NCBI GenBank assembly: GCA_963669175.1
Contig: OY769902.1
Location: 2,656,001 to 2,720,000, forward strand
Source: a bacterium
GTDB lineage: Bacteria; Electryoneota; Electryoneia; Electryoneales; Electryoneaceae
Reading direction: 5' to 3'
DNA: 64,000 nt
The stretch's first letter is position 1. Each line of letters begins with the position of its first letter. Both the position numbers and the translations under genes were made by a program. This document shows, piece by piece, positions 2,576 to 63,655 of this stretch. The notes below the pieces were generated by a model. It searched no databases, had not been told where the DNA came from, and was given only the letters and a program-made list of their open reading frames with translations.

Positions 2576-3880
2576 TCAGTTTTTCCTGCCGATGCAAAAA
2601 TAGGTGAGACCCTTTTGAGCCATATAGATCGGATCATACAGGTTGCGTCCGTCGAAGACGACTTTGTCCTTCAGAATCGAAGCGATCCGTTCGAAGTCCG
2701 GTGAACGGAAATCGATCCATTCAGTCACCACTACCAGGGCATCCGCACCCTCAAGAGCCTGGTATTCATTGTCGGCAAAATCAATTTTATTGCCAAAAAT
2801 TCCACGAGCCACATCCATCGCAGCGGGATCGTAGGCAGCAACACTTGCTCCTGTCTCGAGAAGAGCATTGATCAGGACGATTGATGATGCCTCACGCATA
2901 TCATCCGTTTCAGGCTTGAAGGAAAGACCCCAGACAGCAATTCGTTTTCCGGCAATCTTGTCGCCATAGAAGGATTGCAGTTTCTGGAAAAGAACGCGCT
3001 TTTGTTTCTCGTTCACACTTTCTGTGGCGGAAATCAACTCCAGGTTCACACCGACTTCCTGTGCTGTGCGCAGGATTGCCTTGACATCCTTCGGGAAGCA
3101 GGAACCGCCATACCCAGCGCCGGCAAAGAGGAAATGCTTGCCAATACGTGGGTCCGAGCTTATCCCGCGCCTGATATCACGAATATCCGCGCCGACTTCC
3201 TCACACAAGCGTGACATTTCGTTCATGAAGGAAATCTTCATGGCGAGGAAGGAATTCGCAGTGTACTTGGTCAATTCTGCCGAGGGTACATCCATCACGA
3301 CAATCGGATGGCCCGTGCGAGTGAAAGGCTCATAAAGCCTCTCCATGATTTCAGTCGCCTTGGGATCATCGGAACCGATGACAACGCGATCCGGATAGAG
3401 GAAGTCGTTGATCGCGGCGCCCTCTTTCAGGAATTCCGGGTTGGACACAACCGCGAAATCATGATCCGTAAACTTCTTTATCGTTGCTGTAACCTTCGCT
3501 GCTGTCCCTACCGGGACAGTGCTTTTGTCCACCACAACCTTATAGCCGTTCATTGCCTGGCCGATGCCTTCTGCGACCGCCAGGACATGTTGCAGGTCAG
3601 CGCTTCCATCCTCATCAGGAGGAGTACCCACGGCAATCAGGATAACCTCTGCCTGTTGAATGGCATCGCTTAAACTTGTTGTAAAGAACAGGCGTTCTTT
3701 GCGAACCCCGTCACGCACCAGCGTTTCCAGACCGGGTTCATAAATCGGGATGTGACCCTGACGCAACTTTTCAATCTTGGCTTCATCAATATCTACACAG
3801 GTGACATGGTTACCTGTGGATGCGAAGCAGGCGCCGGCTACCAGGCCAACATACCCAGTTCCTACTACGGCCATCCGCAT
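2576..3880 (-). CDS. ugd: UDP-glucose/GDP-mannose 6-dehydrogenase
   Basis: GTGYVG Rossmann motif, NPEFLKEG, catalytic GGSCFPKD, FKPETDDMRE. Confidence 0.95.
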   Translation of the reverse strand: MRMAVVGTGYVGLVAGACFASTGNHVTCVDIDEAKIEKLRQGHIPIYEPGLETLVRDGVRKERLFFTTSLSDAIQQAEVILIAVGTPPDEDGSADLQHVLAVAEGIGQAMNGYKVVVDKSTVPVGTAAKVTATIKKFTDHDFAVVSNPEFLKEGAAINDFLYPDRVVIGSDDPKATEIMERLYEPFTRTGHPIVVMDVPSAELTKYTANSFLAMKISFMNEMSRLCEEVGADIRDIRRGISSDPRIGKHFLFAGAGYGGSCFPKDVKAILRTAQEVGVNLELISATESVNEKQKRVLFQKLQSFYGDKIAGKRIAVWGLSFKPETDDMREASSIVLINALLETGASVAAYDPAAMDVARGIFGNKIDFADNEYQALEGADALVVVTEWIDFRSPDFERIASILKDKVVFDGRNLYDPIYMAQKGLTYFCIGRKN

Positions 3881-4114
3881 GAGATGTTTCCTTATCTGGC
3901 TTGACTTTGTGACTCAACATGACACTGAAACCCAACTTAACTCCACTTGGTTCCAGATGCCAAACTAGGTTCATACTGTTGCCTCATCATTTGCAAACTG
4001 TTCCGCTTTTATTGGATTCAGCGGAGGCGATGAGGTAACAGCTTGATATTCTTAATGGATATGAAACCTGCTCTGAGAAGATTATGGTTAGCAGCAATAT
4101 CTCGATATGTCAGG

Positions 4115-4915
4115 TTAATGTGAAGAGTTGTGCAGCAGACCTACGAGATCGGAAGAAGAGGCTGCGTCGAAAGGTGTACCGGAAAAGTCTCCATAATAAT
4201 GCTTGATAGAAAAACCAGCCTCAGAAGCTGCCTGCTCCAGCTCAAGCTTGCGCCAGGGGTGCAATTCTGTCGAATAGATCGAATGCATCCATCGCTGGCC
4301 AACACGTTGAAAATGGACAATATTGAAGCGAACATGATCTTCTTCGAAGTCGTTGAACCTGAAGAAAATCTGTTCTGAATCAGCTTCCCGGAATGTCGTG
4401 GGAAACTGGAACCGGTCTTTTTCTTCCATTAAGCGATCATAGTTTCTATTCTGAAATACGAATACACCATCCGGTTTGAGAATACTGGAGATATTCGACA
4501 GCGCCAAAACGAGTTGATCCCTGTTTGCCAGGTGCGGGAGGGAGTTTCCCAGGGCAACAACCGCATCAAACGGACCATCGACAAGTGAAGGGAATGAAAG
4601 GAAATCCGCCTCAACAAAATCAATGGTGCCACTTCCGTCTGTTGTTTGTTCTTTTTGCGTAAACAGGGGAAGCCCGTCTTTTCCTTCGCCACGAGCGATG
4701 CGCAGCATGGCGGGGGAGGGGTCTACAGCAACTACATCGCATCCCCATTTCTGGAAAAGCTTGCTGTGATGACCGGTTCCACAGCCAAGATCGAGCACGC
4801 GTTTGATTCGTTTTTCGCTGAAGAGACGCTGGAAAAAAGGCGCTTCACGTTCAAGACGCTGCTTCCAGCGAATCATCAAGTCATATTTCTCGTCAAGCGA
4901 ATCGTACATGGACAT
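4115..4915 (-). CDS. Class I SAM-dependent methyltransferase (glycine/sarcosine N-methyltransferase-like)
   Basis: VLDLGCGTG motif I, FDAVVALGNSLPHL, RNYD. Confidence 0.85.
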   Translation of the reverse strand: MSMYDSLDEKYDLMIRWKQRLEREAPFFQRLFSEKRIKRVLDLGCGTGHHSKLFQKWGCDVVAVDPSPAMLRIARGEGKDGLPLFTQKEQTTDGSGTIDFVEADFLSFPSLVDGPFDAVVALGNSLPHLANRDQLVLALSNISSILKPDGVFVFQNRNYDRLMEEKDRFQFPTTFREADSEQIFFRFNDFEEDHVRFNIVHFQRVGQRWMHSIYSTELHPWRKLELEQAASEAGFSIKHYYGDFSGTPFDAASSSDLVGLLHNSSH

Positions 4916-15226: not shown

Positions 15227-15330
15227 ATGCAACCCGCTTCGGGGTTGAAATTAGTTGAAATTTGACATAGGGTAAATGCCAAAAAGACGGCATTTACCCT
15301 ATGCTAAAATAGGGAATCCCATCCGGGATT
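15227..15330. repeat. Three-hairpin REP/IS-end-like element; inverted copy of 15981-16083
   Basis: CAACCC..GGGTTG, CATAGGGTAAATGCC-AAAAAGAC-GGCATTTACCCTATG, AATCCC..GGGATT. Confidence 0.85.
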
Positions 15331-15430
15331 CTTAACAAGAATAGTTACCTCAAAGTGTATTCTTCAGGATTGTCAGAATGTCTGCAATTATCTACATGGT
15401 ATTGATATCATCAAAGAGACGAGATTGTTA

Positions 15431-15716
15431 TTGGGATGAGATTGTCATTGGGACGAGGTTGTCATTGGGACGAGGTTGTCGTTGGGACGAGGTTGTCGTT
15501 GGGACGAGGTTGTCATTGGGACGAGGTTGTCGTTGGGACGAGGTTGTCGTTGGGACGAGGTTGTCGTTGGGACGAGGTTGTCGTTGGGACGAGGTTGTCG
15601 TTGGGACGAGGTTGTCGTTGGGACGAGGTTGTCGTTGGGACGAGGTTGTCATTGGGACGAGGTTGTCGTTGGGACGAGGTTGTCGTTGGGTCGAGATTGT
15701 CATTGGGACGAGATTG
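15431..15716 (+). repeat. Tandem array, 17 copies of 17-bp TTGGGACGAGGTTGTCR
   Basis: Unit starts every 17 bp from 15431 to 15703; degenerate copies at the edges and at 15741-15772. Confidence 0.97.
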
Positions 15717-15792: not shown

Positions 15793-15962
15793 CCTTGAGA
15801 CGCGATTATCTTTGAGACGCGATTATCTTTGAGACGCGATTATCCTTGAGATGCGATTATCCTTGAGATGCGATTATCTTTGAGACGCGATTATCCTTGA
15901 GATGCGATTATCCTTGAGATGCGATTATCTTTGAGACGCGATTATCCTTGAGATGCGATTAT
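15793..15962 (+). repeat. Tandem array, 10 copies of 17-bp CYTTGAGAYGCGATTAT
   Basis: Read directly; two variants (CTTTGAGAC and CCTTGAGAT) are interspersed. Confidence 0.97.
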
Positions 15963-15980
15963 CAAATATTGTGGTTGTAC

Positions 15981-16083
15981 AACTCCGAAGGAGTTGCCTA
16001 TTTTAGCATAGTGTAAGCGCTGTCTTTTTAGCGCTTACACTATGTAAGATATCGACAATCTTTCAACCCTGGAAGGGTTGCAT
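15981..16083. repeat. Three-hairpin element directly upstream of tnpA
   Basis: AACTCCGAAGGAGTT, CATAGTGTAAGCGCT-GTCTTTTT-AGCGCTTACACTATG, CAACCCTGGAAGGGTTG. Confidence 0.85.
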
Positions 16084-16105: not shown

Positions 16106-16561
16106 ATGCCGCAATCATTTGTTGCAAACTATATCCATCTTGTCTTTTCCACAAAAAATCGAATTTCCGCATTGAAAGGAACTGTTATTCAAAATGAATT
16201 ATTCCCCTATATCAATCAAGTTATCAAAAAAAATCATTCTACTTGTTTTATTATTAACGGAACAGAAAACCATATTCACCTCTTTATCTCATTGTCACCC
16301 AGGGTTGCACTTTCTGATCTGGTCCGGAATATTAAAAGAGCCTCATCAATCTGGTTGAAGGAAAAGGATGCTCAATTCAAGGAATTCCATTGGCAGGAAG
16401 GATATGCCGCCTATTCTGTAAGTCACAGCCTTATGACACAAGTAAGTTCGTACATAGAAAACCAGGAAAAACATCACAAGATGAAATCCTTCGAGGAAGA
16501 GTTTGTTGAATTCCTAAAAATGCAGAGGATGCACTATGATGAAAAATACCTGTTTGGATGA
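16106..16561 (+). mobile_element. tnpA: IS200/IS605-family Y1 HUH transposase (solo, no tnpB)
   Basis: HLVFSTKNR, NHIHL (HUH), WQEGY, YIENQ catalytic Tyr; AT-rich; GGAGG RBS. Confidence 0.92.
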
Positions 16562-17240: not shown

Positions 17241-17517
17241 ATTTACAGGATGAACAGGATAAATAGGATATCAAGGATAACTGATAATTATGATGAATTA
17301 AAACGAATGGGTAAAGGATGGAAGGCGACTTCGTTTCTGTTGAATAACTGAAGTTGATTATCTGACCAGGAAAGAGAAAACCTCGAACCGGCTCTGAGAT
17401 CAGGGCTGGTTTTTTTTAAATAAACCAGTTTTCAGTTTTATATCCTTTTCATCCTTTCAATCCTTTGCATCCTGTAAATTCTTGCAGATCCTGTAAATTC
17501 TTGCAGATCCTGTGAAT
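17241..17517. repeat. Inverted AGGAT / ATCCT ~9-bp-period arms
   Basis: ATTTACAGGATGAACAGGAT... at left; ATCCTTT/ATCCTGTAAATTCTTGCAG units at right. Confidence 0.75.
17386..17417 (+). terminator. Intrinsic terminator after the TPR gene
   Basis: AACCGGCTCTGA..TCAGGGCTGG followed by a T9 run. Confidence 0.75.
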
Positions 17518-25924: not shown

Positions 25925-26182
25925 GGGGCAGATGAGTGAATATAGAAAAAGGGGACAGTTTCCTTTTCCATAAGTTGTGCGAAAATGTCACGTATTATCG
26001 AGAGGAAAAGGATCCCGTCCCCTTTTCCCGACATACAAAATACGCTATTCAAATGATCGAACTTCGGTTGAAAGTCGAAAGAATGCCGTTATTCTAATCA
26101 TCCTTTTATCCTGTTATCCTGTTCATCTTGAGAGTATCTTGTACATCTTGTGAATAGCAGTGGAGCTGTAAAGGAGAGAGAG

Positions 26183-31608: not shown

Positions 31609-33735
31609 CTATCCCACTTTGATCCATTGCATTTTGTCTTTCGCCATTTCCTGGAACGCTTCCCGGAGTTCCGGCCAGGTCCGCAGGGTGACATCTTTGT
31701 TGATCAGTTCGTCGGCAGCGTGGCGGGCGCGCATGAGGAGCTGCTGATCGTTGACGATATCCGCGAATTTCAGTTCCGGCATGCCATGTTGACGTGTGCC
31801 GAAGACATCCCCGCTGCCACGCAGGCGCAGGTCTTCTTCCGCGATGACGAAGCCGTCGAGAGTATTGATCATCGTCTTGATACGTGAACGCGCTACTTCA
31901 GTTACCGGCGGATAGCCCACGAGGTAACAACGGCTGTCGTTGCCGCCACGTCCGACTCGTCCACGTAACTGGTGCAACTGCGACAGGCCGAACCGTTCCG
32001 AGTGCTCGATCACCATTTCCGTAGCTTCCGGCACATCCACGCCGACTTCTACTACCGTGGTCGATACCAGTGCCGCCGCCTGTCCTGAGGCAAACTTCTG
32101 CATGGCAGCTTCTTTCTCGTCCATCTTCATCCGGCCATGCAGCAATTCAACAGGCAGGCCTTTCAATGGTCCATTTATCAGTTCTTCACGTCCCTCGACA
32201 GCCGCTTGCAGATCCAACTTCTCCGATTCCTCAACGAGGGGGAAGATGATGTAGGCGCGTCCACCTTTTTCCAGGCGTTTGCGGATACGGCGATACAAGT
32301 CATCACGTTGATTGTCGCCGTTGATGGCCTGCGTGGTGATCTTCCCGCGTCCCGGGGGCATCTCATCAAGCCTGCTGACCTCAAGATCACCGTACATGGT
32401 CAACGCCAGCGAGCGTGGGATCGGGGTAGCGGTCATAACCAGGACATCCGGCTTCTGCTTCAGGCCGGGGTCCATCAGTTTCTGACGTTGTGCTACTCCG
32501 AAACGGTGCTGTTCATCTATGACTGTCAGCCCGAGGTTGGGCAGGATGACCGAATCCTGGATAATGGCGTGAGTGCCGATCACGATACATGGTTCCCCGG
32601 AATCGAGACGGGGCAGGATTTCTTTCCGTTCAGCCGCCTTGGTTGATCCGGTCAGAAGATAGACCTGAACGCCAAGCCCCTCAAGGAATTTTCGACTGGT
32701 CAGGTAATGCTGTTCCGCCAGGATTTCTGTGGGCGCCATAAGCGCTGCCTGATAACCGTTTTCCACGGCTATACTCATGGCTATCAGCGCTACAACCGTC
32801 TTCCCCGAACCAACATCGCCCTGTAACAGGCGGCTCATCGGATGGGGGGAGGTCATGTCATTCCAGATCTCACGCAATACCCGTTTCTGGGCATTGGTCA
32901 AGTCAAAAGGCAGCTTTTTGTTGATCAGGTCACGTGTCTGGTCGCCAACCTGCGGATAAGCGATGCCGGATTCTTTCTGCTTCCGTTTATACCGGGTATA
33001 TCCCCACATGAGTTGCAGAAATACGAGTTCGTCAAACTTGAACCGTTCCAGTCCTTTTTCCAGCTCCTGCTGGTTGTGAGGACGATGGACTGCGTTCAGC
33101 GCTTCACGTATTGGCATCAGGTTAAAACGGTTCAGCAATTCTGTAGACCACATCTCTGTAATGGAATTGCCGAACTCACCGATAATACGTTCCATCAGTT
33201 TTCGCAGGCCGCGCGCATCCAGCCCGGCATTTTCGAACTCCTTGCCGCCTGGATAGAGCGCTACCCATCGTCCACTTCCGGATTTCAGATCTTCCGCTTC
33301 TCCTTTGGACAGGTATGTAACTTCCGGATGCGCCATTTGCAGCTCGAAACCGAACTGCTTGACCACTCCGGAAAATGCAGCGGTATAGCCGAATTTGATC
33401 CATTTTTTTATCTGGTTGGTACGTCGGAACCAGACCAGCTTGATAGCGCCGCCGCTGCCGTCTTCCAGGATGGCTTCGTACCGGGTTTTGCCTTTGGCTT
33501 TAACTTCTCGCGTGTCGGCAATGGTGCCGATAACCGTGATCTCGCCATTGGATGGCCCCTGCAGGGAGTTGAGCTGGGTTGTATGAGTACGATCCAGGTA
33601 ACGACGCGGGAAGAAGAGGAGAAGATCCCGAAGAGTGCGTACCCCGGCCTTTTCGAACGGCACCGCTTTTTTTACCCCGATGCTCCGTACGAATCGTACC
33701 GATAAATTCAATGGCGCTGCTTTTTGACTACTCAA
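31609..33735 (-). CDS. recG: ATP-dependent DNA helicase RecG
   Basis: RLLQGDVGSGKT, DEQHRFG, TATPIPR, QLRGRVGRG. Confidence 0.98.
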   Translation of the reverse strand: MSSQKAAPLNLSVRFVRSIGVKKAVPFEKAGVRTLRDLLLFFPRRYLDRTHTTQLNSLQGPSNGEITVIGTIADTREVKAKGKTRYEAILEDGSGGAIKLVWFRRTNQIKKWIKFGYTAAFSGVVKQFGFELQMAHPEVTYLSKGEAEDLKSGSGRWVALYPGGKEFENAGLDARGLRKLMERIIGEFGNSITEMWSTELLNRFNLMPIREALNAVHRPHNQQELEKGLERFKFDELVFLQLMWGYTRYKRKQKESGIAYPQVGDQTRDLINKKLPFDLTNAQKRVLREIWNDMTSPHPMSRLLQGDVGSGKTVVALIAMSIAVENGYQAALMAPTEILAEQHYLTSRKFLEGLGVQVYLLTGSTKAAERKEILPRLDSGEPCIVIGTHAIIQDSVILPNLGLTVIDEQHRFGVAQRQKLMDPGLKQKPDVLVMTATPIPRSLALTMYGDLEVSRLDEMPPGRGKITTQAINGDNQRDDLYRRIRKRLEKGGRAYIIFPLVEESEKLDLQAAVEGREELINGPLKGLPVELLHGRMKMDEKEAAMQKFASGQAAALVSTTVVEVGVDVPEATEMVIEHSERFGLSQLHQLRGRVGRGGNDSRCYLVGYPPVTEVARSRIKTMINTLDGFVIAEEDLRLRGSGDVFGTRQHGMPELKFADIVNDQQLLMRARHAADELINKDVTLRTWPELREAFQEMAKDKMQWIKVG

Positions 33736-33802: not shown

Positions 33803-33828
33803 CGTCATTCCCGCGAAGGCGGGAATCT
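33803..33828 (+). repeat. CGTC-tagged palindrome
   Basis: CGTCATTCCCGCGAAGGCGGGAATCT. Confidence 0.75.
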
Positions 33829-33900
33829 ACTCCCTTTGAATTACAGAGTAATACTTGTTGCAACGTACAGTTCGTCTTCACTGGAAAAAGTGTTAGTCTC

Positions 33901-35253: not shown

Positions 35254-35496
35254 CAGTTCCTCCCGAGTAGTTGGCAAATCACTGCAAACAGTACCGGCTC
35301 GATTTGTAAACATCAATCTGCACAAGACAAAGCAGGATGGTATTAAAATAACCATCCTGAGTATCCTTTACATCCTTTGCATCCTGTAAATTCAAATTTT
35401 ACAAGTCGGGACTCAGACCCGATTGAATAGACCGAGAACTTGCTTCCGGTTCTTACAATGCGAGAAAAAACAACTTCTCTTGACAAGCATTTTGCT

Positions 35497-38381: not shown

Positions 38382-38570
38382 CTCTTATCCCAGCGAAGCA
38401 AGGTGCCTCAGAATCACTGATACTCTCATCCCAGCGAAGGCTGGGATCCAGGCAAGTATCTATGTGTGAAAGAGAAGAACCTTTCTACATCACACAATGC
38501 GACGTGCAGAAATTCCCGCTTGTACGAATGTCGCAAGATGACTGGATTCCTGCCTGCGCAGGAATGAGAG
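38382..38570. repeat. Inverted pair of hairpins related to the CGTC/GTCAT-tagged family
   Basis: CTCTCATCCCAGCGAAGGCTGGGATCCAG versus CTGGATTCCTGCCTGCGCAGGAATGAGAG, plus a partial copy at 38382. Confidence 0.75.
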
Positions 38571-45355: not shown

Positions 45356-45965
45356 GGCGGCGTACATATCGGTTCGCCGTTTGGCCCTGTTGTTGCTGCT
45401 CACGGCTTTCCTGGCCGGGTGCGCAGGACTGAAACCTGATCCGGCTTACAATCGTACTCGCCCCAATGGAAAAAAATCGACTCCTTCCCAGGACAGAAGC
45501 GGTTCAGCAAGCGACAGAAAAACCACACCGGCGACACCCGGAGGGAGCGGGCATCAGGGATCGTCTGCAACTGCCAACAAAACATCAGGGCCATACGCGC
45601 AGGACAAACTGACCCGCGAAATTGATACCTGGTGGGGCTCACCTTATCGCTGGGGCGGCAACACTCGTGGTGGAGTGGATTGCAGCGGGTATACGGTCGC
45701 GTTGATGAAGAATGTGTACGGGGTCACCATCCCACGCACCTCCTCGCTTCAGTACAAGTCCGGCGTAGCTGTTTCCAAGGGGAACCTGCGGCGGGGCGAC
45801 CTTGTCTTTTTTAATACGAACGGACGTGGTGTATCGCATGTCGGGGTGTACCTGGGCGCTGGGAAGTTTACCCATGTGTCCAACTCGGACGGCGTCACTA
45901 TTGATGATCTGGACAGTCCTTATTACAAGAAACGGTATGTCGGGGCGAGGAGGGTATTAAAGTAA
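45348..45965 (+). CDS. NlpC/P60 peptidoglycan endopeptidase lipoprotein
   Basis: Lipobox LAGC, PYRWGG, DCSG, GDLVFF, HVGVY. Confidence 0.93.
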   Translation: MNRAAYISVRRLALLLLLTAFLAGCAGLKPDPAYNRTRPNGKKSTPSQDRSGSASDRKTTPATPGGSGHQGSSATANKTSGPYAQDKLTREIDTWWGSPYRWGGNTRGGVDCSGYTVALMKNVYGVTIPRTSSLQYKSGVAVSKGNLRRGDLVFFNTNGRGVSHVGVYLGAGKFTHVSNSDGVTIDDLDSPYYKKRYVGARRVLK

Positions 45966-46119
45966 AGAAGGTAAAGAAGGTAAAAAAGGTAAAAAAAAGT
46001 AAAGAAAGTAAAGAAGGTAATGAAAGTAGCCTGGCCATGCCTGGCCGGGAGTTATAAAGTTGTAAAGTTGTAAAGTTGTAAAGTTGTAAAGTTGTAAAGT
46101 TGTAAAGTTGTAAAGTTGT
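45960..46119 (+). repeat. Composite: 9-mer ARGTAAAGA run, GTAG REP (46026-46050), then 8 copies of AAAGTTGT (46056-46119)
   Basis: Read directly. Confidence 0.9.
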
Positions 46120-46301
46120 TTTGAGCTAAACTATAAAGATAAGTGTTTATCTGTTTGATATACTAAGATTAACAAGAAAAATTTTGTATTTTTGAATTAT
46201 CATTAAAGAAAGGTTTTTATCCTGTCTTATCCTTCATATCCTTTCCATCCTGTAGAATCTTGCTGTCATCCTTGAAATCCTTGTATCCTTGCATCCTGTG
46301 A

Positions 46302-54073: not shown

Positions 54074-54155
54074 ACGCAAAGACGCAAAGACGCAAAGACG
54101 CAAAGAAAGAAAAACATAAGAAAAGAAAAGAAAAGAAAAGAATAAGAAAGATAAA
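54074..54155 (+). repeat. 4 copies of ACGCAAAG followed by an AAAAG purine run
   Basis: Read directly. Confidence 0.85.
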
Positions 54156-54160
54156 GGCTG

Positions 54161-54482: not shown

Positions 54483-54556
54483 GAACCTATTATCCTTAAC
54501 CATCCTGTTCATCCTGTGAATCCCTGTTGTTATTCTTGCAATTCCGTGAGGCAAAG

Positions 54557-58661: not shown

Positions 58662-58760
58662 CAAGATACTCAAGAAGATTTACAGGATGAACAGGATGTG
58701 AAGGATTAACAGGATAAAGATATTTTAAGTTGTTTAAGAGATTGACTATGGGAGATTAAC

Positions 58761-59033
58761 ATGCCAAGTATAGCTATTGAGTTCTCGAGATTTTTGGAAG
58801 AAGCGAGGAATATGAGTTTGCGTGAAGTAATTTATAATGCACAAAGGATTGGTATGCGTATGGAACAAGAAAGATATGATGATGCTTTAAATATGCAAAG
58901 ATTGAAAGAATTTACATTTTCATTGAGAAATAATTTAGAAGGATCAAAAATCTGTTCCTTATATAAACCTATTGTTGATTCGTTAATTGGTCGAGGTGAG
59001 CTTCAAGATACTGGTTTTACATATTACTCATAA
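58761..59033 (+). CDS. AT-rich orphan protein between AGGAT/ATCCT repeat arms
   Basis: GGGAG RBS, 90 aa open frame in AT-rich DNA. Confidence 0.6.
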   Translation: MPSIAIEFSRFLEEARNMSLREVIYNAQRIGMRMEQERYDDALNMQRLKEFTFSLRNNLEGSKICSLYKPIVDSLIGRGELQDTGFTYYS

Positions 59034-59149
59034 TACCTTTTATCCTTATCATACTTAATATCCTTGGCATCCTGTATATTGAGTCATTATCCTGTGAATC
59101 CTGGAGAAATCCTGTATATCTTGTGAATCCAACAAGTGAGGAGAGTGTA

Positions 59150-61774
59150 GTGGCGACCCCCATGATGCAGCAGTACCGTCAAATCAAGAAGCAGTACCCG
59201 GAAGATGTGATTTTCTTCCGCATGGGGGATTTCTTCGAGATGTTCCACGAGGACGCCAAAACCGCCCACAAAGTCCTCGGCATCACTCTGACTCGTCGCA
59301 ATCACGGCAAGGGTGAAGATGCCGGCACTCCTCTCGCTGGCTTCCCCCATCATCAGCTCGAGACGTACCTCGCCAAGATGACCCGCGCGGGCTATCGTGT
59401 CGTGGTCGTGGAGCAGGTGGAAGACCCGAAGAAGGCCAAGGGACTGGTCAAACGTGATATTGTCCAGATCGTCACTGCAGGCACAAACTTTTGCGAACAG
59501 GCCCTGGATTCAGGAAAAAACCAGTTCCTCGCTGGAGTGGTGAAGCTGGAAAAGAAGGCCGGGATCGCATTCTGTGACGCTACGACCGGCGAGTTCACCG
59601 CGGCTTCGGTGCCGTTTGACCAGGTGCGTGACCTGCTGGACCTGGTGTATCCGGCGGAAGTGATCATGCCCGATGATCAACGCGATGACTTCAAAGAGCT
59701 GTTGCCCACCGGGGTGATGCGGACCCTGCTGCCGCCGTGGATTTTCGAGACTCAATTCGCACGCGACACCCTGATCGAACATTTCAAGGTGAGAAGTCTG
59801 AAAGGATTCGGGGTGGAGGACGACCTGGCGGCTATCGGCGCGGCGGGTTCGGTGATGCATTATGTGCGTGAGAACCTGCGTGTCGACCCAGAACATATCA
59901 AGGGGCTGTCACGTCTGCCGCTCGACGATGTCATGCTGTTGGATGCTTCCACACGCCGCAATCTGGAGCTGGTAGAGCCATTGTGGGGATCGGACCGCAC
60001 CAGCACACTGCTTTTCCATATCGACCGCACTGTTACCCCGTTCGGACGCCGTCAGTTTATCCTGAACCTGTTGCGTCCTTTACTGGACAAAGCATCCATT
60101 GAAAGACGTCATGACGCGGTTGAAGACCTGGTCGAGAATACCGAATTCCGGCGTGGACTGCGGGAACGATTCCGTGAGTTGGCGGATTTGGAACGTCTTG
60201 TCGGTCGTATTGCTGCCATGCGCGCCAATCCACGTGACTTGGCGGCGTTGCGAGAAACTCTGCTGGCCATTCCGGGTATTCGTGACCACGTTCAACGAAA
60301 CGCCCAGGCTGACGCGCTATCCCAGGCGGCTACGGCGCTCGATACGCTGGATGAGTTGGTTGACCTGTTGAGCAGGGCGGTTGCGGATGAACCTCCGGCC
60401 ATGCTGGCCAAGGGCGGAGCGATTCGACAAGGCTACCATGAAGAACTGGATGAGCTTCGTCGGGTGGCGCGTGGCGGGAAAGAGTATATCCTGTCACGGC
60501 AGCAGGAGGAACGCGAAGCTACCGGTATCAACAGCCTGAGTATCAAGTACAACAAGGTGTTCGGATACTATATCGAGGTATCGAAGGCAAACCTGGACAA
60601 GGTGCCGGAACACTATATCCGAAAGCAGACGCTTGTCAATGCCGAACGCTTTATCACGCCTGACCTGAAGGAATGGGAAGACAAGATTCTGACCGCCGAA
60701 GAACGTATGCTGGTGCTGGAGAAGGAGCTGTTCGACCAGCTATGCATGGACATCACCCACTATGCGGGCAAGATCCAGTTCAACGCTCGTGTGCTGGCCC
60801 TTCTGGATTTCCTGGCAGCGGCGGCAGAGATCGCGGTTGAGAAACGGTACACTCGTCCGGTGATCCGTGAGGACAGCCGTCTCCTGCTGGTGAAGAGCCG
60901 TCATCCGGTGGTCGAGAACCTGCTCCCGGTCGGGGATTCGTTTGTCGCCAATGATCTGGATATCGACAGTGACAAACGCTCTATCGCACTGGTGACCGGG
61001 CCGAACATGGGCGGGAAATCGACATACCTGCGTCAAGTTGGCTTGATTATCCTGATGGCGCAGGCCGGGCTGTTTGTCCCGGCGGAACGTGCCGAGATCC
61101 CGATCACCGACCGGATTTTCACCCGTGTGGGCGCGTCGGATAACCTCGCCGCGGGGGAGAGTACCTTCCTGGTCGAGATGCACGAAGCAGCCAATATCCT
61201 GCACAACGCGACCGGCAAAAGCCTGATTCTGCTGGACGAGATTGGACGTGGAACCAGCACCTTCGATGGCCTGTCACTGGCCTGGTCGATTGTGGAATAC
61301 CTGCATGATTACCCCGGCGGCGCCAAGCCGAAAACCCTGTTTGCGACCCATTACCACGAACTGACCGAGCTGGAACACAAACTGGACCGTGTCTTTAACC
61401 TGCATGTGCAGGTGAAGGAATGGGGCGACCGTGTCATCTTCCTGCGCAAAATCGCAGCCGGGGTGAGCGGAGCCAGCTACGGTATCCAGGTAGCTCGCCT
61501 CGCCGGACTGCCGCAGAAGGTGATTGACCGTGCCAAGGAAGTCCTCGCCGCACTGGAAGCGAGTGACATCACACCGAACAACCTGCCACACAAGGGACGC
61601 CGTCCGCAAACCGACGCTGTCCCTTCCAACGATGATCCCCTGCAACTGACCCTGTTCACGAAAGAAGAACGCGCCCTGCGTGACGAGATCGCCAAGGCCG
61701 ACCTGGATAACATGACGCCCCTCGAAGCGCTGAGGTTCCTCGCAGATTTGAAAGGGAAGTATGGGGGAGGGTGA
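59150..61774 (+). CDS. mutS: DNA mismatch repair protein MutS
   Basis: TPMMQQY, FRMGDFFE, TGPNMGGKST, DEIGRGTS, FATHYHEL. Confidence 0.99.
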   Translation: MATPMMQQYRQIKKQYPEDVIFFRMGDFFEMFHEDAKTAHKVLGITLTRRNHGKGEDAGTPLAGFPHHQLETYLAKMTRAGYRVVVVEQVEDPKKAKGLVKRDIVQIVTAGTNFCEQALDSGKNQFLAGVVKLEKKAGIAFCDATTGEFTAASVPFDQVRDLLDLVYPAEVIMPDDQRDDFKELLPTGVMRTLLPPWIFETQFARDTLIEHFKVRSLKGFGVEDDLAAIGAAGSVMHYVRENLRVDPEHIKGLSRLPLDDVMLLDASTRRNLELVEPLWGSDRTSTLLFHIDRTVTPFGRRQFILNLLRPLLDKASIERRHDAVEDLVENTEFRRGLRERFRELADLERLVGRIAAMRANPRDLAALRETLLAIPGIRDHVQRNAQADALSQAATALDTLDELVDLLSRAVADEPPAMLAKGGAIRQGYHEELDELRRVARGGKEYILSRQQEEREATGINSLSIKYNKVFGYYIEVSKANLDKVPEHYIRKQTLVNAERFITPDLKEWEDKILTAEERMLVLEKELFDQLCMDITHYAGKIQFNARVLALLDFLAAAAEIAVEKRYTRPVIREDSRLLLVKSRHPVVENLLPVGDSFVANDLDIDSDKRSIALVTGPNMGGKSTYLRQVGLIILMAQAGLFVPAERAEIPITDRIFTRVGASDNLAAGESTFLVEMHEAANILHNATGKSLILLDEIGRGTSTFDGLSLAWSIVEYLHDYPGGAKPKTLFATHYHELTELEHKLDRVFNLHVQVKEWGDRVIFLRKIAAGVSGASYGIQVARLAGLPQKVIDRAKEVLAALEASDITPNNLPHKGRRPQTDAVPSNDDPLQLTLFTKEERALRDEIAKADLDNMTPLEALRFLADLKGKYGGG

Positions 61775-61824
61775 AGCGTTTCATGATATTGGCATTGTCT
61801 TCCACGCCATGCTTGTCTCTACAA

Positions 61825-61952
61825 GTCATTCCCGACCTATATGTCATCCTCGACCACCCTGTCATCCCCGGCCCTCCACTATGTCATCCTCGACCACCCT
61901 GTCATCCCCGGCCCTCCACTATGTCATCCCCGGCTTGAACGGGGATCTCGAG
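61825..61952 (+). repeat. Left modular GTCAT(C/T)C-headed array ending in the hairpin core
   Basis: Units of 18, 18, 22, 18 and 22 bp, then GTCATCCCCGGCTTGAACGGGGATCTCGAG. Confidence 0.9.
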
Positions 61953-61994
61953 CGATGTCGAGCAAAGACCTAATCAACAGAAAGGGAATTTGTT

Positions 61995-62276
61995 ATGTAT
62001 TACGTTTACATCCTGACCAATGACCGGCATACGGTTTTCTATACAGGGATCACTAATGATATTGTCAGACGTGTGCATGAGCACAAAGAGAAAATGATTG
62101 AGGGGTTTACGAAGCAGTACAATGTATCCAAGCTAGTCTATTTCGAAGAACATCACAGAGTTGATGATGCCATCCGCAGGGAAAAGAGACTCAAGAAATG
62201 GGACAGGGCGTGGAAAATAGAATTGATTGAAAAGGATAATCCGGAATGGAGCGATTTGTATGATATGTTCTTTTGA
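61995..62276 (+). CDS. Solo GIY-YIG nuclease (UPF0213/YhbQ-like)
   Basis: YYVYIL...FYTGIT.D..RR..EH, LVYFE, AIRREKRLKKW.RAWK..LIE..NPEW.DL. Confidence 0.92.
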   Translation: MYYVYILTNDRHTVFYTGITNDIVRRVHEHKEKMIEGFTKQYNVSKLVYFEEHHRVDDAIRREKRLKKWDRAWKIELIEKDNPEWSDLYDMFF

Positions 62277-62284
62277 CATCCTCA

Positions 62285-62965
62285 CACCGGTCTCGAGATC
62301 CCCGTTCGAGCCGGGGATGACATAGCGGAGGACTGGGGATGACATGTCGTTAGGATTGGCGCACCGGTCTCGAGATCCCCGTTCGAGCCGGGGATGACAT
62401 AGCGGAGGACTGGGGATGACATGTCGTTAGGATTGGCGCACCGGTCTCGAGATCCCCGTTCGAGCCGGGGATGACATAGGGGAGGGCCGGGGATGACATA
62501 GTGTCGGGTATTGGCGCACCGGTCTCGAGATCCCCGTTCGAGCCGGGGATGACATAGTGTCGGGTATTGGCGCACCGGTCTCGAGATCCCCGTTCGAGCC
62601 GGGGATGACATAGCGGAGGACTGGGGATGACATGTCGTTAGGATTGGCGCACCGGTCTCGAGATCCCCGTTCGAGCCGGGGATGACATAGGGGAGGGCCG
62701 GGGATGACATAGTGTCGGGTATTGGCGCACCGGTCTCGAGATCCCCGTTCGAGCCGGGGATGACATAGTGTCGGGTATTGGCGCACCGGTCTCGAGATCC
62801 CCGTTCGAGCCGGGGATGACAATCTATATGAGGATGACAAGCTATATGGGGATGACTGGTTATATGAGGATGACATGCTATATGGGGATGACATGTGTAA
62901 AAAGGATGACATGTAGACCGGGGATGACAGTGGGGTTGAGGGTGACATGGAGTGCGGGAATGGAA
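62285..62965 (+). repeat. Right modular array: 8 copies of a 38-bp hairpin core with reused linkers, then about 8 18-bp GATGAC units
   Basis: CACCGGTCTCGAGATCCCCGTTCGAGCCGGGGATGACA at 62285, 62362, 62439, 62517, 62573, 62650, 62728 and 62784. Confidence 0.95.
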
Positions 62966-63178
62966 AGAAGCCTCTTAGCGTTAAAAGCAATTCCTTTTCA
63001 TTCCTGCAATTAGTACTCATTGTGCGTACAATAATAAAGGTGTTCCGGGAGGGGTGACTGGGATAATTATCACAAGGATCCTTACCGGGAATTTCCCACC
63101 AGCACCTGGAGCCGGGTGAGTAAGTGGTTCGATCCATCATGCCTGATGCAATGGATCATTAGCAAGGGAGGAGTGGCT

Positions 63179-63655
63179 ATGCAGGTACATCGTCAACACA
63201 AGAACGTGCTCCTGGGACTGCTGCTATTCTGTTTGTTGCCCATCGTGTCTTTCGCGAATGTCCTGACCGTGGATGAGGTCATGGCGGGTGATTTCCTCCG
63301 TTTCGGTGACTGGAAAACTCATATCACCGGAATAACAGCGCCGGCCCCTGATACGGAATGGGGCAAGGTTGCGCTTGATTTTGCCATCGAGACGCTTCAA
63401 GGCAAGGCAGTGAAAGTCTTTACCCTGACCACCAACAACACCGCTGCCGGGATCGTATACGGGGAAGATGGGAATGCCTTCGCTACGATCCTCTGTGGTG
63501 AGAACCGTGACCAGGATTTCGCCGTTCTGTTACTGGAACGTGGGCTGGCCAAAGTGAACACCGAAACCCTGCAGGAGGACCAGCAGAATTACCTCGAGGT
63601 CGAGAAAAAAGCCCGAGATAAGAAACTCGGGTTATGGTCCGACGAAACAGAATAA
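63179..63655 (+). CDS. Exported thermonuclease (SNase)-fold protein, possibly inactive
   Basis: Signal peptide, GITAP, LLERGLA, EKKAR..KLGLW. Confidence 0.75.
   Translation: MQVHRQHKNVLLGLLLFCLLPIVSFANVLTVDEVMAGDFLRFGDWKTHITGITAPAPDTEWGKVALDFAIETLQGKAVKVFTLTTNNTAAGIVYGEDGNAFATILCGENRDQDFAVLLLERGLAKVNTETLQEDQQNYLEVEKKARDKKLGLWSDETE

Follow-up and report, generated by a model that had tools for sequence, protein, structure and literature searches.

What does a solitary nuclease gene do between two mirror-image arrays of hairpin repeats? This question is raised by a locus (61825..62965) in a stretch of 64,000 nucleotides (nt), referred to here as the window, from contig OY769902.1 (positions 2,656,001 to 2,720,000; assembly GCA_963669175.1) of an uncultured environmental bacterium of the Electryoneota. 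The gene encodes a GIY-YIG nuclease of 93 amino acids and lies between inverted copies of a tagged hairpin. With a probability of about 85%, the locus is an Ssn-type system, that is, a GIY-YIG gene flanked by the recognition hairpins of its own product. Judged by their sequence, the gene-flanking hairpins are Ssn-related motifs (SRMs), and at the same time TGTC/CGTC-tagged repetitive extragenic palindromes (REPs). A preliminary description, made from the letters of the DNA, had proposed a system analogous to the coupling of REP arrays with HUH-type RAYT enzymes. The coupling itself proved largely right; both the association and the activity were published in 2025, and the locus is a real, unusually expanded example of the Ssn/SRM partnership, not a new kind of system.

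The gene (61995..62276, plus strand) is ssn-like according to its open reading frame (ORF), Pfam, an AlphaFold2 model and BLASTP. Residues 1-75 of the protein match the Pfam GIY-YIG family PF01541 (E 4.4e-16), and the model consists of one compact domain without a second domain (predicted local distance difference test, pLDDT, 96.1). The residues Y5, Y16, R26, H30, E63 and N82 are invariant in an alignment of 24 homologs. A word-indexed search yielded 2012 candidates, 2006 of them with E <= 1e-3, and the best non-self matches are 65-70% identical; NCBIfam contains no family that matches the protein. The solved folds closest to the model are UPF0213 BH0048, HIGLE, Slx1, UvrC-N and I-TevI. The UPF0213/YhbQ-like proteins (PDB 1zg2, 1ywl), which are the closest solved structures, are also single-domain GIY-YIG proteins of about 100 amino acids; however, the relation in sequence is distant (profile E 4.9e-8, 27% identity in the fold match), and they are not known to be associated with hairpin repeats. 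Identification as a homing endonuclease of the I-TevI type was rejected, as the 93-residue protein has no second domain and I-TevI is a weak fold match (E 2.1).

The family to which the protein is best compared has been characterized in Neisseria meningitidis. SsnA, a single-domain GIY-YIG protein of 94 amino acids, binds NTS, an oriented extension of the dRS3 repeat (Chenal et al., Nat Commun 2025, PMC11893778). NTS is bound only as single-stranded DNA (ssDNA), and the cut falls a few nucleotides upstream of it. The three nucleotides that precede the palindrome are important for cutting, and the C right after it for binding. Cleavage is abolished by the substitutions Y6A, Y17A and E64A, and activity on double-stranded DNA (dsDNA) or RNA is absent. 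A changed palindrome sequence with the structure kept abolished activity; a hairpin split over two strands, or one with insertions in the loop, was still cut. Three more homologs cut near their own motifs, bringing orientation-specific cleavage of ssDNA to four enzymes in all, and SsnA reduces transformation of N. meningitidis by motif-bearing DNA. At least one SRM is present at 71% of the Ssn homolog loci, and SRMs on both sides at 42%. The authors note the resemblance of NTS-ssnA-NTS to an insertion sequence and raise the domestication of a mobile element as a hypothesis. Follow-up literature on Ssn beyond PMC11893778 was not found.

At the ssnA locus of N. gonorrhoeae, which is flanked by NTS repeats, a frame that served as a proxy for the meningococcal protein is identical to the window protein at 44 of 86 positions (51%; BLASTP E 5e-36). 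The homology threshold of the Ssn paper is a BLAST E below 1e-10, and assignment to CDD cd10448 (GIY-YIG_unchar_3) also served to define the family (PMC11893778). A tblastn comparison with two chromosome-sized N. gonorrhoeae records likewise gave 51% identity (E 2e-25), and the matched frame lies among canonical NTS repeats. Y5, Y16 and E63 align with the gonococcal frame and, given the difference of one residue in length, would be the positional equivalents of Y6, Y17 and E64 of SsnA. The locus shares with the Ssn family a single domain of about 94 amino acids, a conserved Tyr/Tyr/Glu set, inverted tagged hairpins that fit the SRM pattern and an occurrence in many phyla. It differs in its uncultured host, in the variant hairpin (stem ATCCCCGG, loop CTYGA, tail CTCGAG where CCAG is canonical), and in the expansion of one arm to eight identical copies, with about 18 half-repeats at the locus. 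As a side observation, the gonococcal locus included in the collection described below (L081; NZ_CP119142.1, 1880219-1883476, a 2.17-Mb record labelled as plasmid) has a nuclease-like frame from about 1501, where the listed ORF comprises only 71 amino acids with a TTG start, the nearest ATG is in another frame and the PLSDB gene table has no feature; the start may be unresolved or the gene disrupted.

To the left of the gene, a full SRM (61922..61950, plus strand) matches the published pattern, with a TGTC tag, a hairpin from 61923 and a C directly after the palindrome. It is preceded by an outer array (61825..61921, plus strand) of five half-repeats, starting at 61825, 61843, 61861, 61883 and 61901 and measuring 18, 18, 22, 18 and 22 nt. 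Each of these combines the GTC tag with the 5' stem arm, ATCCYC(GG), and another 8-12 nt, and the 3' arm is absent from all five. To the right of the gene, eight cores of 38 bp (62285..62821, minus strand; starts at 62285, 62362, 62439, 62517, 62573, 62650, 62728 and 62784) are 100% identical. Each carries a full SRM on the minus strand, at 62294-62322, 62371-62399, 62448-62476, 62526-62554, 62582-62610, 62659-62687, 62737-62765 and 62793-62821. The cores (R) alternate with four reused modules in the order RAB-RAB-RCD-RD-RAB-RCD-RD-R, with spacers of 39, 39, 40, 18, 39, 40 and 18 nt. Modules A (62323-62344, 62400-62421, 62611-62632) and C (62477-62498, 62688-62709) are half-repeats; B occupies 62345-62361, 62422-62438 and 62633-62649, and D 62499-62516, 62555-62572, 62710-62727 and 62766-62783. 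Tandem Repeats Finder describes a higher-order unit of 211 nt in this array (2.3 copies, 98% matches). Beyond it lies an outer array of about eight degenerate half-repeats of about 18 nt (62822..62965, minus strand), the plus-strand 18-mers of which end in GATGAC; read on the minus strand, the unit is TGTCATCCYC followed by about 9 nt, which is the mirror of the left outer array. The half-repeats therefore number five on the left and, on the right, five within the array (modules A and C) plus about eight beyond it.

The segments 61922-61952 and 62791-62821 are complementary over 31 nt at 97%, that is with one mismatch, and module C, when reverse-complemented, equals the left 22-mer except for one mismatch. 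The gene-flanking copies read, in order, T, GTC, ATCCCCGG, CTYGA and ACGGGGAT, and the better reading of the hairpin is a 5-nt loop (CTTGA in the left copy, CTCGA in the right ones) on an 8-bp stem whose top carries one G.A mismatch. The layout at the locus is thus SRM(+), gene, SRM(-), with the right SRM amplified to a mosaic tandem array of eight full copies and with half-repeats stacked on the tag side of both arms. The gene, the inverted core, the hairpin pattern, the module order, the 18/22-mers of the flanks and the shared module, all of which had been reported in the preliminary description, were recovered position by position.

These motifs are far more frequent than chance would allow. 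The pattern ATCCCCG-N7-CGGGGAT occurs nine times in the window, always at the locus (once left of the gene and eight times right of it), compared with a mean of 0.38 in dinucleotide shuffles. GGGGATGACA, with at most one mismatch, occurs 25 times against 5.5 expected, a number reached by none of 100 shuffles, and 23 of the 25 occurrences are inside the locus. The published SRM pattern has 11 sites in the window versus a mean of 0.26 in 50 dinucleotide shuffles, and nine of them flank the nuclease gene in inverted orientation; the 11 sites are the left hairpin, the eight right hairpins, a solo hairpin at 33803 and a site at 31665 which is not hairpin-like. The nuclease ORF is intergenic, with mutS (59123-61774) on its left and a staphylococcal-nuclease-like gene (63116-63655) on its right. 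The named relatives of this MutS come from Ca. Electryonea, Calditrichaeota and KSB1, and a MutS with 87% identity lies on a contig of 22.5 kb.

An independent line of evidence comes from other genomes. In a scan of one genome per species, at least 600 candidate stretches were obtained, at least 593 of which encode a relative of the nuclease; the best 80 (51-64% identity) were examined. These loci derive from Proteobacteria, Bacteroidota, Cyanobacteriota, Planctomycetota, Chloroflexota, Patescibacteria and other phyla. When a strict tagged hairpin is defined as GTC directly before a perfect hairpin in the expected orientation and at most 200 nt from the gene, 56 of the 80 loci have such a hairpin on either side (42 upstream, 43 downstream), and 29 have one on both. 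Their density is 3.86 per kb near the gene versus 0.19 per kb at more than 400 nt from it in the same loci, a difference of about 20-fold, while shuffled flanks contain about 1.45 per 31 kb (about 0.05 per kb). The tagged hairpins far from the gene, 91 in 472 kb of other loci, are nevertheless above the shuffle level. The median distance between gene and hairpin is 30.5 nt upstream and 14 nt downstream, and the hairpin is followed by CCA in 37 of 45 cases upstream and in 37 of 48 downstream. The functional coupling of the GIY-YIG enzyme to GTCAT-tagged hairpins, which had been proposed in the preliminary description, is supported by these comparisons and by the published binding of the hairpin by homologs (PMC11893778).

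The relation between the two sides of a gene extends beyond the tag. In a gap-tolerant alignment of the upstream flank with the reverse-complemented downstream flank, 55 of 78 loci exceed the 95th percentile of the control, and the stems, which vary among loci, usually agree between both sides of one gene. The published SRM pattern is found within 300 nt and in the expected orientation on either side in 40 and on both sides in 18 of the 80 loci. Neighbouring genes are not conserved (homologous flanking ORFs form clusters of at most 5 of 81 loci), and phyla are scrambled in the protein tree, although with 93 amino acids this tree is mostly unresolved (3 of 78 branches starred). Because paired hairpins recur while the neighbours are not conserved and the tree scrambles phyla, the gene and its two hairpins would appear, from these comparisons, to be a self-contained unit found in many contexts. 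A phage collection searched with tblastn contained no homolog of the nuclease, and the 33 records with a homolog in a plasmid collection are mostly very large replicons, 32 of them typed as non-mobilizable; there is therefore no sign of a phage or of a small plasmid as vehicle. Two further observations concern individual loci. A Zetaproteobacteria contig (L080) carries two copies of the nuclease gene (1125-1394 and 1986-2258), about 600 nt apart, with tagged hairpins near each. In three Burkholderiales-related loci (L033, L063 and L075), homologous genes are shared on both sides of the nuclease gene, and the locus in this group therefore looks vertically inherited rather than freshly inserted.

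Several points weigh against the reading of the locus as an Ssn-type system. Among the 80 loci, 24 have a strict tagged hairpin on neither side, and 34 have no match to the SRM pattern within 1 kb. In the window, the ssDNA folding energy of -6.8 kcal/mol does not set the gene-flanking hairpin apart from shuffles (z -1.3 to -1.4), its stem contains a G.A mismatch, and the tail after the critical C is TCGAG where CA(G) is usual. The preliminary description had suggested a test for co-phylogeny of arm and protein, and hairpin classes follow the protein tree only weakly. For the 4-nt-loop class against the CTTGA-loop class, with labels on 43 of 81 rows, 8 changes were counted; shuffles averaged 10.65, and 36 of 1000 were as low. 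With all seven hairpin labels together, 32 changes were counted versus 42.6, and none of 200 shuffles was as low. Finally, the target specificity of the window enzyme is deduced from adjacency only. As a change of the palindrome abolishes the activity of SsnA, each enzyme has its own target; SsnA reads sequence as well as shape, and the target of the window enzyme is thus a prediction.

By analogy with the characterized homologs, the nuclease would bind the folded hairpin only on ssDNA and only in the orientation of the motif. Such ssDNA could be supplied by incoming transforming or conjugative DNA, or by intermediates of replication and recombination. Binding would require the C after the palindrome and cutting the GTC tag, and the strand would be hydrolysed a few nucleotides 5' of the tag. 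At the locus, this predicts a cut of the plus strand just left of 61922 and of the minus strand just right of each of the eight cores, so that, for either strand, the predicted cuts lie on a single side of the gene. The outcome could be a strand- and site-specific restriction of motif-bearing ssDNA, which would modulate recombination and horizontal transfer. The 100% identity of the eight cores and the 211-nt super-repeat suggest, from sequence, recent unequal exchange or slippage; most likely, the identical cores and the shared TGTCATCC heads allowed unequal recombination or replication slippage, through which the array has grown, and the enzyme may have promoted this growth by nicking.

The preliminary description had placed the action of the nuclease near the tag, in agreement with the cleavage by Ssn homologs a few nucleotides 5' of it (PMC11893778). 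It had also considered a nickase acting on cruciforms and the production of structured RNAs from the array. Neither is favoured, since the characterized Ssn enzymes cut ssDNA only, with no activity on dsDNA or RNA (PMC11893778). Furthermore, Rfam at gathering thresholds gave no match across the 64-kb window, and hence no known RNA family covers the hairpins. Longer stretches of the array have folding z values of +1.2 and -0.8, so that a reading of the array as a long structured RNA or DNA is not supported. The region 61600-63300 contains two promoter-like sites versus 1.9 expected, and a role as promoter was rejected. The suggestion that the enzyme drives the expansion and spread of the array could, hypothetically, still apply, and it bears on the alternatives below.

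Related hairpins without a nuclease gene are present elsewhere in the window, as had been noted for 33803 and 38382-38570. A solo hairpin (33803..33830, plus strand) of the canonical SRM or CGTC-1 type has a CGTC tag, a perfect 8-bp stem, a 4-nt loop and a CTAC tail; it folds with -8.9 kcal/mol (z -3.55), and its stem sequence is unlike that of the gene-flanking copies. Two CTC-tagged hairpins with CCAG tails face each other at a distance of about 100 nt (38425-38447, plus strand, and 38546-38568, minus strand). This pair (38425..38568) is a REPIN-like doublet, and a degenerate copy lies near 38382. In total, 12 tagged hairpins of this type occur in the window, nine of them at the nuclease locus. 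The stems of the 33803 and 38425/38546 hairpins differ from the gene-flanking stems and represent at least two further hairpin types. Since these types have different stems and no nuclease, the genome may hold other ssn paralogs or relic repeat populations.

Half-repeats are not restricted to the window. When they were scored within 150 nt of every full tagged hairpin in the other loci, 45 were found on the tag side versus 10 on the tail side, a ratio inflated by arrays that are counted from several neighbouring hairpins; the fairer figure is that per locus, with at least one half-repeat on the tag side in 19, and on the tail side in 9, of the 73 loci in which a full hairpin is present. Several loci, including L005, L010 and L030, have tandem arrays of 18-22 nt beside the gene, the units of which consist of about 10 nt, the tag and the 5' arm. 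In L047, stacks of 8.9 and 6.6 half-repeats (3720-3895 and 4290-4640) lie on the tag side of full hairpins, as do 3.6 copies with 100% matches in L039 (1290-2010). Tag-containing arrays of longer period occur in L057, L062 and L077, and in L062 (3618-4450) the nuclease gene lies inside a 62-nt tandem array with units on both sides and eight SRM matches within 1 kb. Half-repeat arrays were not found discussed in the accessible part of PMC11893778, whose supplementary data may describe them; the preference of the stacks for the tag side is possibly a new detail.

It could be imagined that such stacks have a function in cutting. As split or loop-inserted hairpins are still cut, a stack of 5' arms that share one 3' arm could offer alternative cutting registers. 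Alternatively, the stacks could be scars of repeated cutting and repair. In a tentative and, in our opinion, unlikely extension of this idea, the half-repeats would be footprints of Ssn cuts in vivo, left as short duplications on repair, and the breaks would seed unequal exchange, which builds mosaic arrays and disperses copies; this would make the enzyme the multiplier of CGTC-tagged REPs. If true, Ssn would be a hydrolytic, non-HUH counterpart of RAYT and would define a previously unrecognized type of mobile or amplifying element in prokaryotes, besides its role in the restriction of ssDNA.

A related possibility is that SRM-gene-SRM forms an autonomous mobile element driven by its GIY-YIG enzyme, with solo and paired hairpins as non-autonomous derivatives and with the nuclease as the cause of multiplication and array growth. 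This overlaps with the interpretation as an Ssn-type system and differs from it only in the purpose of the enzyme; it is conceivable, but we consider it rather doubtful. The layout with terminal inverted repeats is like that of an insertion sequence, the gene-less doublet 38425/38546, the solo hairpin 33803 and the hairpins far from the gene in other loci would be its derivatives, and the scrambled phyla and non-conserved context would fit with mobility. The half-repeats favour the tag side, where the characterized enzymes cut, and this is clear in L047 and L039. The same hypothesis is raised in PMC11893778. No transposase had been found for CGTC-tagged REPs (PMC3733652), and no homolog of the Y1 transposase of the window was present within 4 kb of the nuclease gene in any of the 80 loci (one query, tblastn E 1e-3). 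However, GIY-YIG enzymes are hydrolytic, and the accessible part of PMC11893778 reports neither strand transfer nor rejoining for Ssn. The role tested in vivo in N. meningitidis is the restriction of transforming ssDNA (PMC11893778), and the multiplication and maintenance of the Neisseria repeats have been attributed to an HUH-type RAYT (preprint 10.1101/2021.07.10.451892). Moreover, half-repeats of the same array do not count as independent events.

It is improbable that the nuclease is a selfish gene of the homing type, which has inserted between pre-existing pairs of hairpins and spreads by cleavage of doublets followed by recombinational copying. Gene-less doublets with the same outer and inner polarity do exist, the gene lies between inverted copies at short and fairly fixed distances, and in L062 it is embedded in an array that continues on both sides. 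Nevertheless, the protein has no DNA-binding domain of the I-TevI type, its homologs do not cleave dsDNA (PMC11893778), and no pair of empty and occupied alleles was seen in the loci examined. Most improbable of all is a coincidental adjacency of the nuclease with unrelated REP-like regulatory elements or terminators, or an artefact of assembly. REP-like hairpins are common in intergenic regions, and a higher-order repeat with 100% identical units is of the type that assemblers may mis-size. Against this stand the association, which recurs with a fixed orientation and spacing across many phyla (56 of 80 loci), the specific binding of such hairpins by homologs (PMC11893778) and the lack of any terminator-like site in 61600-63300 or of a T-run after the hairpins. 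The contig is reported as 5.4 Mb, and an assembly error could alter the copy number, not the architecture.

The interpretation as an Ssn-type system also places the locus among other known repeat systems. Di Nocera et al. (BMC Genomics 2013, PMC3733652) defined the CGTC-tagged REPs as hairpins with a CGTC, TGTC or CCTC tag and a CCA tail, in which the stem measures 8-9 bp and starts with AT and the loop comprises 4-5 nt. They are described from five phyla, include dRS3 of Neisseria and RPE-4/-6 of Rickettsia, form head-to-head dimers and occasional large clusters, and 'apparently lack a dedicated transposase' (PMC3733652). The gene-flanking copies of the window share the tag, the AT-starting stem, the loop length and a short tail, but the tail is CTC(GAG) instead of CCA; and while the 2013 paper found no dedicated enzyme, the enzyme associated with the hairpins is encoded by a GIY-YIG gene both in the window and in Chenal et al. 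(2025). With the REP/BIME-RAYT systems the locus has in common a small nuclease gene between inverted copies of a hairpin that is recognized, here by prediction, as ssDNA, and solo copies, doublets and clusters elsewhere; it differs in hydrolysis by a GIY-YIG enzyme instead of a covalent tyrosine intermediate of the HUH type, and in the tag, GTC instead of GTAG. Identification as a REP/RAYT REPtron was rejected, the enzyme at the locus being GIY-YIG and not HUH Y1. A CRISPR array was rejected as well, as the spacers are four reused modules and no CRISPR repeat family was found in Rfam. The mosaic dRS3 clusters of Neisseria are called NIMEs. In these clusters, which are mentioned in PMC3733652, tagged hairpins also alternate with a few reused modules in long intergenic arrays; in the window, by contrast, the full copies are identical and in one orientation, the modules are partly half-hairpins and the array abuts the nuclease gene.

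The locus confirms, in a distant uncultured lineage, the partnership of Ssn with hairpins known from Neisseria, and the test on 80 loci independently reproduces the published association. It also provides a candidate for a new pair of enzyme and target (stem ATCCCCGG, loop CTYGA, tail C-TCGAG) in a family that is of interest as a programmable cutter of ssDNA. How the widespread tagged hairpins multiply has been an open question since at least 2013 (Di Nocera et al.), and the extreme one-sided expansion, the reuse of modules and the tendency of half-repeats to stack on the cleavage side may offer clues.

The window contains other repeats that seem to be of a different nature. A gene for an IS200-like Y1 (HUH) transposase of 151 amino acids (16106-16561, plus strand; Pfam PF01797, E 1.6e-25) is preceded by a perfect 15-bp hairpin (16007-16044), two smaller hairpins and two tandem arrays of 17-mers (17.6 copies at 15418-15716 and 10 copies at 15793-15963). 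These arrays are bracketed by a 47-nt inverted pair with 70% identity (15300-15346 and 15964-16010). Tagged hairpins do not flank this gene, and the Y1 locus looks like a RAYT/TIRYT-type locus with repeat arrays of its own, distinct from the GIY-YIG hairpins.

Finally, nine clusters of three to four ATCCT(G/T)T boxes with a spacing of 9-10 nt were observed (17247-17278, 17442-17473, 26100-26120, 35354-35385, 46219-46251, 46268-46297, 54492-54515, 58684-58715 and 59089-59113), compared with 0.02 clusters in shuffles. Two pairs of clusters are arranged as mirror images around short units, and the pair 58684/59089 flanks an ORF of 90 amino acids (58761-59033) with no Pfam match. These boxes could be regulator or iteron boxes, or belong to another small element. 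Further intergenic tandem arrays (45962-46119, 54074-54156) consist of GTAAAGAAG (7 copies), AGTTGTAA (8.8 copies) and ACGCAAAG (4 copies), and the genome seems to be unusually rich in short tandem repeats.

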